From an uncultured Gammaproteobacteria bacterium (GTDB taxonomy: Bacteria > Patescibacteriota > Microgenomatia > CAZETR01 > Amesbacteraceae): a DNA stretch of 64,000 bases. Below the pieces are notes generated by a model that did not search any database, was not told the origin of the DNA, and worked only from the letters and a program-made list of their open reading frames with translations. Numbering within the stretch: the stretch's first letter is position 1; each line of letters begins with the position of its first letter. A program made the translations under genes and the position numbers. This document shows positions 1,952 to 35,651 of the stretch, piece after piece. Location: the NCBI GenBank assembly GCA_964356705.1, contig CAYHIN010000001.1:3066-67065 (forward strand). Reading direction: 5' to 3'.

Positions 1952-3434
1952 TGATATAGATTTTACTGCCTACTGCAACATATATCACTTCTTCCTCACT
2001 TACTACTAGATCCGTGGCCCCTTTTAGTAGTTCATTCTTCAGTTGTGATTCATATTTACCCGTCTTATCCAAGATCACGATTCTCTCTTTTTCTGGATCC
2101 AAGACATACAGCTTTTCCACTTCATCCGAAGTGTAGACCACACTATTTTGTCCCAGCTCGGTGTCTAGTCCACTTATACTAAAGCTGTCTTTTACTCCTC
2201 TGGTATATTTTAGGATTTCGGATTTCGAGTTTAGAGTTTTTACCATCCAAATACTGCCATCAATACTCATTCCTTTCGCACCTACAGCCTTCTCCTGATC
2301 TTCCCCTACCCATTTCATTTTGGTTCCATACCCAGCATCAGTCACGGGATATCGCCATATTTCACCGTCTGTTGCCACTCCATATATGTTTCCCGCAAAC
2401 ATTCCAATGTCCACTATTCCCTCACCCATCTGCTCAGCAGTAATCACCTGTTTACACTTCGCATTCCCCGTGTCACACTGCACTCCTCCTTTATCCCCGA
2501 ACACAACTACTCGCCCAGGATAAGTAGCGAGAGCCACCGGCTTTCCAACAGCGTCAGCTCCAGCCACCACACTACCACTTTTCTTTTTGATATCCACATT
2601 TACCAGTCTCGACTCGTTTGTATCTATCCCCCACAGTTTTCCCCCTATCAGGCTTATTTTCAATACCCTCATTCCCTCTCTTATCAGTCCCCAGTCAATA
2701 AGTTCGGAAAGCTCAGTTCGGTTTACTCCATAAGCTTTTTCTATCAGGCCCGGTATTTTCTCCCTGACAGTCTTCACCCTGTCCTCAAAATCTTTCCCAG
2801 AAAAGTTCTCCGCCCTAGTCTTCAGAGCTTCCAATTTTCCAGCATCAGTAGAGTTGGATCCAAACTCACTCCACATACTCTCTACCTCCTGAAAATCAGC
2901 GCTTTTTTTCAGATCAGTTTCCGCCCGTCTATACCCCCCGACCCCAAACAAGATTACTCCCAATACCAAAAATCCCAATCCTATATAGATAGTCTTTTTT
3001 ATCTTTTTTCCCCCATCCATATCGTGTCTATAAGCCAATCCCATCTTTATTCTTTCCACCCACTTCATCACATCCACTCGAGGCAAGCTCAAACCTCTTG
3101 GTTTTTTCACTTTAGGATTTAGGATTTCGTGCTTAGAGTTTATAAATTCAACTTCAGATTCATTCACAAAGATTTTCAGATCAGGTGATACTCTTCCCTC
3201 AAACACCCGCACCCGATCTTCCCCAGGCGTCAGCATCACTTTGTTCCCCATCTTCAATATTTCTACTTTTACATTTTTGGCTCCCACGTAAGCTCTTTCT
3301 CCCATTATTTCCACCACTCCCACTCGCCCAAACCGGCCCACGATCCATCCCAGCCTGTCTTTTATCCCCGCTGGCCCATCCTCCCCATCATACAAATTCT
3401 CAATCTCACTTTTCTTTACCCCATACACCCACAT
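1938..3434 (-). CDS. membrane-anchored hypothetical protein, possible extracellular beta-propeller
   Basis: 498 aa with a single TM (IYIGLGFLVLGVILFGVGGY) after a cytoplasmic N-domain. Contains two heptamer-repeat insertions (family B). Confidence 0.55.
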   Translation of the reverse strand: MWVYGVKKSEIENLYDGEDGPAGIKDRLGWIVGRFGRVGVVEIMGERAYVGAKNVKVEILKMGNKVMLTPGEDRVRVFEGRVSPDLKIFVNESEVEFINSKHEILNPKVKKPRGLSLPRVDVMKWVERIKMGLAYRHDMDGGKKIKKTIYIGLGFLVLGVILFGVGGYRRAETDLKKSADFQEVESMWSEFGSNSTDAGKLEALKTRAENFSGKDFEDRVKTVREKIPGLIEKAYGVNRTELSELIDWGLIREGMRVLKISLIGGKLWGIDTNESRLVNVDIKKKSGSVVAGADAVGKPVALATYPGRVVVFGDKGGVQCDTGNAKCKQVITAEQMGEGIVDIGMFAGNIYGVATDGEIWRYPVTDAGYGTKMKWVGEDQEKAVGAKGMSIDGSIWMVKTLNSKSEILKYTRGVKDSFSISGLDTELGQNSVVYTSDEVEKLYVLDPEKERIVILDKTGKYESQLKNELLKGATDLVVSEEEVIYVAVGSKIYISEGH

Positions 3435-3457
3435 ACAATTATATTAGCACTCAGCAC

Positions 3458-3706
3458 CTACAACCACAGAATAGCCACAATCAGAACTAGTACTGTGAGC
3501 AAAAAATGCACTCTGGACAAAAGTTTTACCGTCCCATTTATATCCTCCTCGATCGAATCGGTCATAATCGACACCTGCTTGATCACAACCAATGCAAAAA
3601 AACCATACATCACCACTCCCAACACAAAAAATATCTTGACCAAAAGCATCGGTCCAGTTGATACCAAACCTCGGATTGCATCTACTACTGCCGGATCGGT
3701 CATCAT
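3458..3706 (-). CDS. small membrane protein
   Basis: 82 aa with two hydrophobic helices. Tightly packed against its neighbour. Confidence 0.45.
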   Translation of the reverse strand: MMTDPAVVDAIRGLVSTGPMLLVKIFFVLGVVMYGFFALVVIKQVSIMTDSIEEDINGTVKLLSRVHFLLTVLVLIVAILWL

Positions 3707-3707
3707 G

Positions 3708-4391
3708 TTATTCTCCTCTCTCCCTTCTCTTTTCGAGCTCTTCAGATAACTCCGAGATTATTCTGATAGCCCGGTCCGGAAATGGTACCGCCAGCCCTTC
3801 TACCACCTGGTGTTCAGCCGCCGTTTCTACGTGTAGATCTCCAAAATCAAACATATGTCTAAAAAATCCTCCCGTGATCGCCGTTGGCTGCTCAATATGA
3901 TTTAAGTTGGCATACGATACATGCCGGTATAACAAGTTATGAAAATCGATATCTACTATTCGCTCATTAGTGATAACCAGTACCGAGTAATACCACTTCA
4001 AAAATCGCTCTAAGGTAATCCCCATAGTTACCAGGTACCACACCATCTTGCCTACCCACACATATTCAAACGGCACCGGAGCAAAAATCCCCGTCATGCT
4101 TAGTACTTCTGGCAAAACTAGCATCCCAAGGACCATGAGTATCCAAGTCAGGTTCGTAATCGGATGAGCGCGCAATAGCAGCACTATCTCTTCATCTCCT
4201 TGCTGGTTTACAAACTTTTTCCCCGGTCGCACACAATACGCCCCCATACATTCTCTTCCTCCCTTTTCTCCCACCCGCCCGAGCACCTCATCTACTACTG
4301 TCTTATGATGTTTTGCACCAGACTGAGACACAGGAGTAGAAACCACAGGAGGCACTACTTTTCCATCTTGAGCAACATACACCTCCGGCAT
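3708..4391 (-). CDS. membrane protein with bacterial PH (bPH_2/YdbT-like) domain
   Basis: TM helices followed by ...VLVITNERIVDIDFHNL..., which resembles DUF304/bPH. Confidence 0.45.
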   Translation of the reverse strand: MPEVYVAQDGKVVPPVVSTPVSQSGAKHHKTVVDEVLGRVGEKGGRECMGAYCVRPGKKFVNQQGDEEIVLLLRAHPITNLTWILMVLGMLVLPEVLSMTGIFAPVPFEYVWVGKMVWYLVTMGITLERFLKWYYSVLVITNERIVDIDFHNLLYRHVSYANLNHIEQPTAITGGFFRHMFDFGDLHVETAAEHQVVEGLAVPFPDRAIRIISELSEELEKRRERGE

Positions 4392-33963: not shown

Positions 33964-33967
33964 GATC

Positions 33968-34447
33968 ATGGAAGACCAAACCCAAGATATTCTAAAGATC
34001 AGCCAAGATCTCCTCTCTTTTCTCAGCGTAGCTGACGACACTACTGTCGAAGTCAGCTTCAATAGTGAAGAAAATACCTACAGCATTGCCATCCAGACCC
34101 AAAACCCCTCCCTTCTTATTGGCTACCACGGCGAAAATCTTGCCGCCATGCAAAACATCATTTCTCAGCACGTTTTTGCCAAGCAGAGTTCCTGGCCTAC
34201 TCTGACTATAAATGTAAATGATTACCGGGAAAAGAGATTGACCGCCGTCACTGCTCTGGCCGACTCAGCCGTCTCCCGCGTGATAGCTACCGGTCAGGCC
34301 CACTCTCTTCCTCCCATGCCAGCCAATGAGCGCAGATTAGTCCACATGCACTTACAAGATCATCCCCAAGTCACGACGGCCTCCGAAGGCATCGGTCGTT
34401 CCCGCGGCATCATCATCTCCCCCAAACCAGAAACAGTGTCATCCTGA
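33968..34447 (+). CDS. jag: Jag/KhpB RNA-binding protein (R3H domain)
   Basis: C-terminal R3H-like ERRLVHMHLQDHPQVTTASEG. Operon context. The stop codon lies inside a family E repeat element. Confidence 0.75.
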   Translation: MEDQTQDILKISQDLLSFLSVADDTTVEVSFNSEENTYSIAIQTQNPSLLIGYHGENLAAMQNIISQHVFAKQSSWPTLTINVNDYREKRLTAVTALADSAVSRVIATGQAHSLPPMPANERRLVHMHLQDHPQVTTASEGIGRSRGIIISPKPETVSS

Positions 34448-34478
34448 GCGCAGCGAAGGATCCAGTATAATTCCAAAA

Positions 34479-35651
34479 GTGCTCCTGTTTTTTTTAATTC
34501 TTTTTCTCCCATCCCAATTAGCATTTCACTTCTGGCCGGAGTGGTCATATCTTTTCGGCACTCGCATCGACTATCTCTCCCCCACTCTTTATCTCACCGA
34601 TCTTATAATCATCCCCCTCATTCTTCTCATAAGACCAAAAATAAAAATACCTCTCGTTCTCTTAATCTTCGTCGTCTTCAACATTTTATTTTCTTTGTCA
34701 CCCATGGTGACCATCTACAAATGGCTCCGCGTTCTTGAATACTGCTTATTATTTTTATCTCTAAAAAAGAGTTTAGAGTTTAGAGTTTTGAATTTAGGAT
34801 TTAGTCTCGCAATATTATGGACTTCCCTCCTCGCCTGGTTCCAGTTTATATCCCAGTCCTCAATAGGCGGCTTCTGGTACTGGCTCGGCGAGCGAACATT
34901 CAATATAGTTACTCCCAGCATCGCAAAGTTTTCTATCTTAGGTCATGAGTATCTACGAGCATATTCTACTTTTCCTCACCCAAATGCCCTCGCTGGTTTT
35001 TTATTAGTCGGCGCTTTGCTTATCATTCTGAGTGAAACGAAGAATCCAGAAAACCCTAGATCCTTCACTGCGTTCAGGATGACATCGAAACTAGCGTTAA
35101 CAATTGCCCTCCTCACCATCCCCCTCACATTCTCCCGCACCGCCATCTTTCTCGAAATATTATTAATAATTTATTTATTTATTCCAAAATTCAAAAAAGT
35201 ATTGATAATTCTTTCACTCCTTACTCTCACTACATATCTCACCACACACTACTCACAACTTTCTACTTCGTTAACTGATCGCATGTGGCTCATTGAAAAA
35301 AGTGTCATAGCTATCCAAAAATCCCCTATTATGGGTCTCGGTCTGGGTAGTTTTCCAGTCTTTCAACCCCATTTATCCTCTCCCTCTTTCGCGCTTCAGT
35401 TCCAGCCAGTCCACAATATATTTTTACTACTTATTAGCGAACTCGGCCTCCCCTTCTCCCTATTTATTACTTTCAATGTGGTCAAAAAAGCAATTCGTCT
35501 TAGCACTTCGCACTTAGCGCTTCGCGCTGCAATCCTAGTGATCGCAATCACTGGGATGGTCGATCACTACTGGCTCACCATCCACCAAAACACTCTATTA
35601 CTAGTGTTATTATTAGCACTATTAAAATCAAAGCTAACAGCCGATGACTAA
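34479..35651 (+). CDS. O-antigen ligase-like (Wzy_C) polytopic membrane protein
   Basis: At least 10 TM helices plus a periplasmic loop with RAYSTFPHPNALAGF. Contains family B and C repeat insertions. Confidence 0.45.
   Translation: MLLFFLILFLPSQLAFHFWPEWSYLFGTRIDYLSPTLYLTDLIIIPLILLIRPKIKIPLVLLIFVVFNILFSLSPMVTIYKWLRVLEYCLLFLSLKKSLEFRVLNLGFSLAILWTSLLAWFQFISQSSIGGFWYWLGERTFNIVTPSIAKFSILGHEYLRAYSTFPHPNALAGFLLVGALLIILSETKNPENPRSFTAFRMTSKLALTIALLTIPLTFSRTAIFLEILLIIYLFIPKFKKVLIILSLLTLTTYLTTHYSQLSTSLTDRMWLIEKSVIAIQKSPIMGLGLGSFPVFQPHLSSPSFALQFQPVHNIFLLLISELGLPFSLFITFNVVKKAIRLSTSHLALRAAILVIAITGMVDHYWLTIHQNTLLLVLLLALLKSKLTADD

Follow-up and report, generated by a model that had tools for sequence, protein, structure and literature searches.

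The stretch of DNA analyzed here, 64,000 nt of contig CAYHIN010000001.1 (hereafter, the window), carries short tandem arrays of a heptanucleotide unit, Family B (TTTNGRR), inside dnaA, dnaN, and other open reading frames (ORFs). The results point, with a probability of roughly 0.6, to Family B being part of a genome-wide set of short, imperfect heptanucleotide arrays, for which we propose a DNA-level origin through 7-nt-register misalignment, followed by selective filtering. The arrays are real, enriched at period 7, distributed by lineage, located in loops and linkers, stable, and polar with respect to the chromosomal strand. An earlier note on this DNA, made from the sequence alone, had taken them as insertions and as potential hotspots of phase variation or length variation.

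Heptanucleotide arrays in the window

Tandem Repeats Finder placed 7-nt arrays at six sites, 2209-2227, 3111-3127, 6078-6110, 28759-28790, 30630-30660, and 34768-34797, with 2.4-4.7 copies and 73-100% matches. The six Family B arrays listed in the earlier note are therefore present, and their coordinates agree. Direct reading gave the units TTTGGGA/CTTGGGA/TTTGAGA, TTTAGGA/TTTCGGA, and TTTAGAG; the arrays are imperfect, with no more than about 2.4 consecutive perfect units. A lag-7 autocorrelation scan, using 21 comparisons and requiring at least 15 matches, added a seventh member of Family B, absent from the earlier list, which lies within the SpoIID-like gene (5783-5822).

The number of period-7 arrays in the 64 kb was 24, which corresponds to about one per 2.7 kb, against 0.4 in dinucleotide-preserving shuffles. 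An equal scan gave 0-4 arrays at periods 5, 6, and 8-11, and period 7 alone is enriched, where the excess was measured on the window plus about 90 kb of relatives. The pattern YTTNGRR repeated three times, with at most one mismatch, was matched nine times relative to an expectation of 0.12, and all nine matches were on the + strand.

At least six heptamer families are found in the window, and Family B, with seven arrays, is one among these. The AATACNT family has six arrays, CTTAGCN four, CTACTCA three, ACTGACA/CAACTGA one, and ATTGTCC one, the last being a perfect array of 3.4 units in tsaE. Eighteen of the 24 arrays lie within ORFs, and six (25%) lie in the non-coding part, which makes up about 5% of the window. 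The array-bearing genes include dnaA, dnaN, tsaD, tsaE, the RNase H gene, rnpA, the SpoIID-like gene, the Wzy_C gene, and ORF 1938-3434. Pfam matches confirmed DnaA, DnaN, SpoIID, and Wzy_C, and the product of ORF 1938-3434 (498 aa) had no Pfam match. In the encoded proteins the arrays fill tolerant positions, namely the DnaA linker, surface loops of DnaN, TsaD, TsaE, and RNase H, a membrane-protein loop of Wzy_C, and the coiled coil of the SpoIID-like protein.

As had been proposed, the genic arrays are read in frame: three heptamers amount to 21 nt, or seven codons, and therefore the same cyclic peptide recurs. Translation reproduced the proposed peptides, KSQIPNPKSQEP in DnaA and KQIPNPKSQISN in DnaN. 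Intergenic arrays of the AATACNT, CTTAGCN, and other families stop a few bases 5' of + strand starts (33111-33149, 6275-6322, 9762-9802, and 15225-15263). The first of these ends at 33149, immediately before the ATG of yidC at 33151, and no obvious Shine-Dalgarno sequence is present there.

An assembly artefact was ruled out because the arrays recur in the independent assemblies L002, L003, L165, L168, and L169, where handles of this form denote the compared loci. Rfam and tRNA scans of the window found no known RNA family that overlaps any array.

Stability of the arrays

The arrays are ancient and stable in copy number across the genomes compared, and they are very probably not contingency switches. 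Over window positions 25291-43114, the locus L165 (GCA_038077715.1) is 99.93% identical (17,824 nt, 12 single-nucleotide polymorphisms, no gaps), and none of the 12 polymorphisms falls inside the 14 arrays covered. The count of unit-number differences in this one strain is thus zero. In the comparison with L001-L003, the third positions of conserved four-fold codons show about 47% identity, and the nucleotide identity of dnaA and dnaN to relatives is 72-76%; the unit counts in dnaA, dnaN, and SpoIID are still equal. The dnaA, dnaN, and SpoIID arrays differ among relatives by point substitutions only. Length change was seen solely in ORF 1938-3434, in the form of a 42-nt presence/absence, a 9-nt difference, and a longer array in L166. 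The suggestion of length variation can therefore be retained on the evolutionary time scale for ORF 1938-3434, but it fails for the dnaA, dnaN, and SpoIID arrays.

The suggestion of phase variation, according to which the arrays are slipped-strand hotspots whose unit number often changes, so that DnaA, DnaN, and others are switched or varied in length, fares worse. Although a 7-nt unit does not divide evenly into codons, ORF 1938-3434 shows the two differences between relatives described above, and tsaE contains its perfect 3.4-unit array, the arrays are short and imperfect (73-87% matches) rather than long, near-perfect tracts, the 99.93%-identical strain has no indel over 17.8 kb and 14 arrays, and the unit counts in dnaA, dnaN, and SpoIID are identical across near-saturated divergence. 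The hosts, moreover, include essential single-copy genes: if dnaA or dnaN slipped by just one unit, the resulting frameshift would kill the cell and would not act as a switch. Dispensability is not a property of hosts such as DnaA, DnaN, TsaD, TsaE, and RNase H. Possible contingency hosts are Wzy_C and ORF 1938-3434, and length differences were found in ORF 1938-3434 only. Frequent switching is hence regarded as highly improbable, and for evolutionary time scales the idea has largely been refuted.

Phase-variable contingency loci are exemplified by the tetranucleotides of Haemophilus and Neisseria, and by the heptanucleotide tracts in the hmw1A promoters and in neuO. They share with the window arrays a unit that is not a multiple of three, a possible location within an ORF, and slipped-strand mispairing as the presumed route. 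However, contingency loci are long, perfect, and strain-variable and lie in dispensable surface or modification genes, whereas the window arrays are short, imperfect, and invariant and lie in core genes. A non-triplet microsatellite inside a gene need not be a phase-variation switch.

Arrays in dnaA, dnaN, and the intervening spacer

The DnaA translation over the array is IKSQIPNPKSQEP. Alignment of homologues placed it in the variable linker between domains I and II, in agreement with the earlier note, but did not bear out an insertion: among 16 aligned DnaA sequences, down to 54% identity, the linker with the array is as long as in the 15 homologues and equals the array-free linkers in length within two residues. 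In L003, the dnaA array consists of the same four-plus units as in the window, where 27 of 31 nt are identical and the differences are mainly at the variable base of the unit. Positions 30632-30655 of the array match a G-quadruplex-type motif, with at least four consecutive G3+ tracts separated by short loops, which is the sole predicted one on the + strand of the window; four G-tracts are present in this one of the seven Family B arrays, and the other six have no G-quadruplex motif.

The DnaN translation over its array is KQIPNPKSQISNE, and the segment is a surface loop in domain II of the clamp. It aligns with the normal loop that follows the TD(G/S)(F/H)R strand (TDGFRMS) of solved clamps and is only 3 aa longer than that in PDB 7evp, and consequently no length insertion was confirmed in DnaN either. 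The array has the same length and unit count in the window, L002, and L003.

The spacer between the two genes, of 219 nt, corresponds to 29334-29552 in the window, 11363-11582 in L001, 11360-11579 in L002, and 1643-1861 in L003. Its mean column identity across these four genomes is 88%, where four-fold codon sites are only about 47% identical, and it contains DnaA-box-like sequences at 29438, 29483, and 29542. These sequence features mark the spacer as a probable oriC or a probable control region of dnaN. The AATACNT array of the spacer has five units in each of the window, L002, and L003, and L001 has an AAACTCT array of the same length instead. This heptamer slot is the only part of the spacer that is not conserved.

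Family B arrays in other genes

The array at 6078-6110 of the SpoIID-like gene is read as LKSQTTNLKSQITG, which forms coiled-coil heptads. Both SpoIID-like arrays are unchanged in length in L166 and L168, and the array at 6078-6110 has the same length also in L169 and L170. In L169, a relative of 71% identity with 52% GC, this slot carries CAAATCT about five times, and the array peptide is retained to about 70% protein identity. At the 5783-5822 slot, L168 has a perfect (CTCAAGA)4.5 array, which is matched in length by degenerate arrays in L166 and the window. L-x-x-Q-I-x-x heptads make up the coiled coil at the N terminus of the SpoIID-like protein, and they are gap-free in 19 homologues down to 58% identity. 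A sequence such as (AAATCTC)3 encodes KSQISNL, with I and L at the a/d spacing, as used by this coiled coil.

In ORF 1938-3434, the AAATCTC array that corresponds to 2209-2239 is longer (by 9 nt) and more perfect in L168, and in L166 the segment is of the same length and aperiodic. The array at 3111-3138 faces a clean 42-nt gap in L168, equal to six units or 14 codons, and is longer in L166. In the Wzy_C gene, the third unit of the Family B array is TTTTGAA exactly where TTTAGAG would place TAG in frame, and in this interruption a coding constraint is visible. This slot (34768-34804) is occupied in L001 and L002 by an array of the AATACAT family, with a 3-nt length difference.

Strand polarity and exchange of families

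In the four multi-member families, all 20 arrays (7, 6, 4, and 3) are in the + orientation. The TTTNGRR and CTTAGCN arrays have hosts on both gene strands, and their chromosomal orientation is constant. The polarity is also present in L166 and L168, and it is absent from the Daviesbacteria and Saccharibacteria loci, where a strong skew is lacking. The + strand of the window is strongly C-rich, with a GC skew of −0.1 to −0.46 per kb throughout. The skew does not change its sign at dnaA or at the oriC-like spacer, and it is constant across dnaA also in L001, L002, L004, and L166; in Saccharibacteria L042 and in locus L157, the sign switches at dnaA. The constant skew indicates either that the origin is elsewhere or that the asymmetry is not set by the oriC-like spacer. 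Base-composition skew was rejected as the source of the polarity: five families agree with it, but Family B places a G-rich unit on a C-rich strand. If the polarity is linked to replication, it would open the generation of heptamer repeats to experimental testing.

Five slots carry another family in a relative at nearly equal length. Two of these are in Wzy_C, where slot 1 has AGAGTTT in the window and ATACAAG in a relative, and slot 4 has CTTAGCA and ATAATTC, respectively. The RNase H slot has AATACNT in the window and CTCACAA in a relative. In L001, the dnaN loop has TTGTCAG in place of AAATCCC, and the dnaA-dnaN spacer has AAACTCT in place of TGTATTA; this last swap is ungapped, and the rest of the spacer is 88% conserved.

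Lineage distribution

The best named relatives of the DnaA and SpoIID-like proteins belong to Candidatus Amesbacteria, Gottesmanbacteria, and the Microgenomates group, and therefore the window derives from a bacterium of the candidate phyla radiation (CPR). L001-L003, with about 83% DnaA identity, have 5.6-15 period-7 arrays per 10 kb, and an Amesbacteria metagenome-assembled genome (MAG), L004, has 8 arrays in 13 kb. Further counts are 5 in Levybacteria L021, including a perfect TTTCGGA x5, 11 in Daviesbacteria L056, 8 in the unclassified Patescibacteria locus L046, and 6 in L008, a MAG labelled Gammaproteobacteria. Saccharibacteria show a period-7 excess in one of four loci (L042, 12 arrays).

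In the neighborhoods of dnaA, the density of period-7 arrays per 10 kb is 1.71 for 23 CPR loci versus 0.36 for 57 non-CPR loci, and in the latter, period 7 is no different from other non-triplet periods. This panel was obtained from a genome-collection scan with DnaA alignment, with one Amesbacteria locus among the matches listed. A metagenome scan with the DnaA protein gave no close relative among the matches listed; its patterns matched generic DnaA motifs, and these loci constitute extra controls. The heptamer arrays are thus a trait of this Amesbacteria-like lineage of the Microgenomates, and they characterize the three further loci sampled from that group as well.

No description of heptamer repeats in CPR/Patescibacteria was found in the literature, including a tree-of-life-wide survey of short tandem repeats from 2025. 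A protein search with (SQIPNPK)6 returned only 16 tiny hypothetical ORFs of unrelated bacteria, in which long TCCCAAA arrays exist, and is uninformative on CPR genes.

Origin of the arrays

In the reading favored here, 7-nt-register misalignment, slippage included, would occur as DNA is replicated or repaired and would both create the arrays and preserve their periodicity. In-register templated correction would homogenize the units with the length unchanged, and purifying selection would remove variants that break the frame or create stops; within genes, only in-frame, stop-free arrays at tolerant positions would persist. The DNA is about 95% coding, and therefore most arrays are inside genes. 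A DNA-level origin is supported by the 7-nt unit, by the intergenic members of the same families, and by the use of one chromosomal strand in both + and − genes. Homogenization without length change is supported by the perfect (CTCAAGA)4.5 array of L168, which corresponds to degenerate arrays of equal length. The model would account for the period specificity, the genic and intergenic occurrence, the pairs of perfect and degenerate arrays of equal length, and the 42-nt indel. Both the mechanism of misalignment and homogenization and the cause of the polarity are what we infer.

Several points weigh against this reading. Simple local slippage leaves unexplained the recurrence of a few units at unrelated loci and in other Microgenomates classes. 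It also does not explain the strand polarity, where Family B, the most abundant family, is G-rich on the C-rich strand, nor the presence of different families in one slot at nearly equal length. No enzyme or intermediate has been identified. By a hand count, the third-codon positions of the arrays are somewhat more conserved (25 of 36) than the gene average (about 50%), which could reflect function rather than homogenization. Because the shared repertoire, the strand polarity, and the family swaps are unexplained by misalignment, explanations by cassette-like turnover and by functional sites stay alive.

In a cassette-like turnover, a templated or mobile process would copy arrays of a limited common repertoire into permissive slots, and the arrays would not grow from local sequence; ectopic conversion from one array to another, break repair on a template, or an unrecognized element are examples. 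This is possible but doubtful. Units recur at unrelated loci and also outside the class of the window, with TTTCGGA in Levybacteria L021 and TTTAGGA, AAACTCT, and ATTTCTA in L126 and L056, which speaks for it, as do the five slots that swap families and the clean 42-nt presence/absence in ORF 1938-3434, and the strict polarity would suit a single-stranded, replication-coupled intermediate. However, inspection of the flanks of the seven Family B arrays gave no conserved flanks, target duplications, or terminal structures, Pfam gave no candidate enzyme in the window, and the genomes compared are divergent enough for unconstrained slots to have evolved independently in place. An origin from miniature inverted-repeat transposable elements or insertion elements was itself ruled out, since the seven arrays are without conserved flanks or terminal structure. 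Only tentatively can it be proposed that Microgenomates possess a strand-polar turnover in heptamer register, templated or mobile, which rewrites permissive slots from a shared repertoire beyond ordinary slippage. If this is true, the process would represent a mobile or mutational mechanism not described before, and the slots that it rewrites would include the spacer adjacent to the probable oriC as well as loops in DnaA, the sliding clamp, and other essential proteins. Since one protein heptad corresponds to three heptamers, much of the material for loops, linkers, and coiled coils in these reduced genomes would then come mainly from this process.

A selected role in cis, as binding or structural sites (for a strand-specific DNA- or RNA-binding protein, a chromosome-polar signal, a G-quadruplex, or an AT-rich unwinding element), is unlikely. 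The uniform + orientation in the four families counted (20 of 20), the persistence of arrays beyond synonymous saturation, the five units kept in three genomes within a conserved spacer with DnaA-box-like sequences, the AATACNT arrays that end just 5' of start codons, such as that of yidC, and the G-quadruplex-type motif in dnaA would all be consistent with it. Nevertheless, the family at a slot is interchangeable between relatives, and therefore the exact sequence is not essential there; the genic arrays are placed by protein tolerance and not at fixed gene landmarks, four G-tracts occur in one of seven Family B arrays, and the polarity is absent in the Daviesbacteria and Saccharibacteria loci. 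An origin at the protein level, where selection for low-complexity linkers or coiled-coil heptads would leave the 7-nt period as a by-product, is far less credible still. In its favor, homologues down to 58% identity retain the LKSQI(S/T)N heptads in the coiled coil of the SpoIID-like protein, and SQIPNPK-type peptides are hydrophilic, proline-rich, and suited to loops. Such an origin is contradicted, however, because a 7-residue repeat predicts a period of 21 nt and not 7 nt, and because the same families have intergenic and antisense members, lying on one strand in genes of both orientations and encoding unrelated peptides; in addition, only period 7 is enriched.

Comparison with known repeats

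Heptameric repeats have been a recognized, unexplained oddity of some bacterial genomes since 1990 and have been studied almost only in intergenic DNA. The closest known systems are the short tandemly repeated repetitive (STRR) sequences and GGGGA(C/T)T repeats of cyanobacteria (Calothrix, Nostoc) and the GGGAATC repeats of Xanthomonas (PMC4692102). They share with the window arrays tandem 7-nt units in few to several copies, several dispersed families, and a period-7 excess, as well as a mechanism of origin that is not established (PMC4692102). The Nostoc unit, GGGGA(C/T)T, closely resembles that of Family B written as GGGA(C/T)TT. Unlike the STRR sequences, which are predominantly intergenic, 18 of the 24 window arrays are genic, including those in essential genes. 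The Xanthomonas and Nostoc repeats are split about equally between the strands (PMC4692102), whereas the multi-member families of the window are on one chromosomal strand. In comparison with the G-quadruplex heptamers of Xanthomonas and Nostoc, the window has one array, in dnaA, that is predicted by its motif to be G-quadruplex-capable. The original hosts of the STRR sequences are heterocystous cyanobacteria, whereas the host of the window is an Amesbacteria-like member of the Microgenomates within the CPR.

TAACTGA direct repeats are known from Beggiatoaceae, cyanobacteria, and Bacteroidetes (PMC4679880). Like the window arrays, they have 2-6 copies and are often interrupted by related 7-mers, many of them end just 5' of start codons, and the few ORF-internal ones are in a stop-free orientation at tolerant protein positions (PMC4679880). 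Indels in these repeats between strains occur in 7-nt steps (PMC4679880). The CAACTGA-type array of the window is one base off TAACTGA, and the TTGTCAG reading LSVVSCQ parallels LSVISYQ (PMC4679880). However, the TAACTGA repeats are overwhelmingly intergenic and oriented to the downstream gene (PMC4679880), whereas the window arrays are mostly genic and oriented to the chromosome, and at a given slot one of several co-existing families can replace another.

Rickettsia palindromic elements and Borg repeats are similar to the window arrays in that repeat DNA is present in genes at permissive, often disordered positions and adds peptide segments. Rickettsia palindromic elements are palindromic and about 100-150 bp long, and the units of genic Borg repeats are multiples of 3. 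The window arrays, in contrast to both, have 7-nt units and are short and old. Borg tandem repeats are described as recently formed and rapidly evolving (PMC9879509).

Taken together, the window arrays are of the same kind as the cyanobacterial STRR sequences and other heptameric simple-sequence repeats, and their genic, polar, and slot-swapping character and their CPR host set them apart. The CPR lineage has almost no intergenic space, and therefore the arrays are embedded in core genes of replication and tRNA modification. This embedding exposes the strand polarity, the long-term stability of copy number, the swapping of families at slots, and the conversion of a DNA heptamer into a protein heptad. 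The polarity, the swapping, and the heptamer-to-heptad coding merit follow-up.

Other arrays and neighboring features

The arrays of all families are collected in Table 1. The array in tsaD adds 4 aa relative to solved homologues. Compared with solved structures of TsaE, the array in tsaE adds 6 aa; no other array in the window is perfect, and this one is the best candidate there for a recent expansion.

Table 1. Heptanucleotide arrays of the window, with Family B first.
Array	Position	Strand	Family or unit	Host gene (strand)	Reading or remark
ORF 1938-3434, array 1	2209..2239	+	Family B; TTTAGGA TTTCGGA TTTCGAG TTTAGAG	ORF 1938-3434 (−)	KTLNSKSEILKY
ORF 1938-3434, array 2	3111..3138	+	Family B; TTTAGGA TTTAGGA TTTCGTG CTTAGAG	ORF 1938-3434 (−)	KHEILNPK (KHEILNPKVKK)
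SpoIID-like, array 1	5783..5822	+	Family B, degenerate	SpoIID-like, 4538-6358 (−)	NAQATSLKTQKTNL, coiled coil
SpoIID-like, array 2	6078..6110	+	Family B; ATTTGGG ACTTGAG ATTTGTG GTTTGGG ATTTGAG	SpoIID-like, 4538-6358 (−)	LKSQTTNLKSQITG
dnaN	28759..28790	+	Family B	dnaN, 28209-29333 (−)	KQIPNPKSQISN
dnaA	30629..30660	+	Family B; CTTGGGA CTTGGGG TTTGGGA TTTGGGA TTTG	dnaA, 29553-30914 (−)	KSQIPNPKSQEP
Wzy_C	34768..34804	+	Family B; AGAGTTT/TTTAGAG	Wzy_C, 34479-35651 (+)	KKSLEFRVLNLGFS, sense reading
dnaA-dnaN spacer	29500..29545	+	AATACNT, 5 units		dnaA-proximal end
Other AATACNT	6275-6322	+	AATACNT		
Other AATACNT	28175-28208	+	AATACNT		
Other AATACNT	33111-33149	+	AATACNT		
Other AATACNT	35827-35870	+	AATACNT		
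Other AATACNT	36795-36833	+	AATACNT		
Wzy_C	35494..35534	+	CTTAGCN	Wzy_C	
Other CTTAGCN	9762-9802		CTTAGCN		
Other CTTAGCN	15225-15263		CTTAGCN		
tsaD	42548-42596		CTTAGCN	tsaD (−)	
tsaE	45522..45545	+	perfect (ATTGTCC)3.4	tsaE, 45314-45745 (−)	MDNGQWT
rnpA	32844..32883	+	CTACTCA	rnpA	
Wzy_C	35233-35271		CTACTCA	Wzy_C	conserved in L001 and L002
Other CTACTCA	62027-62058		CTACTCA		
CAACTGA-type	41812-41857		CAACTGA-type		related to CTACTCA

In L168, a start-proximal array at 7114-7155 is annotated as an N-terminal extension of SmpB. In the window, the tmRNA gene (1049-1458 on the − strand, 89.9 bits in Rfam) adjoins smpB, and a gene for tRNA-Cys is located at 60469-60540 on the − strand; neither overlaps an array. 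A repeat class distinct from the heptamers is formed by the 9-nt unit AATTAGCCC, which occurs in two arrays of 3.4 copies at 52580-52610 and 52948-52978, about 370 nt apart. A metagenome contig of an unrelated organism with 62% GC (L094) has inverted pairs of (GTGACGA)n followed by (TCGTCAC)n, back to back and hairpin-capable, at 3248-3326, 9006-9115, and 10989-11103.

Two genes of the window depart from the general level of divergence. The VirB4/TraG-like ATPase at 22000-23880 is 95-97% identical to its counterparts in L001 (17548-19140) and L002 (16966-18828), and in the same relatives DnaA is 83% identical and the 1279-aa protein beside the ATPase is 47-62% identical. These identities suggest unusually strong conservation or a recent exchange of this type IV secretion-like gene. 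The leucyl-tRNA synthetase at 39263-41410 is 83% identical to that of L002 (1085-3223) but only 54% identical to that of L001 (384-2612), although L001 is otherwise as closely related as L002, and the gene in L001 may be a replacement.

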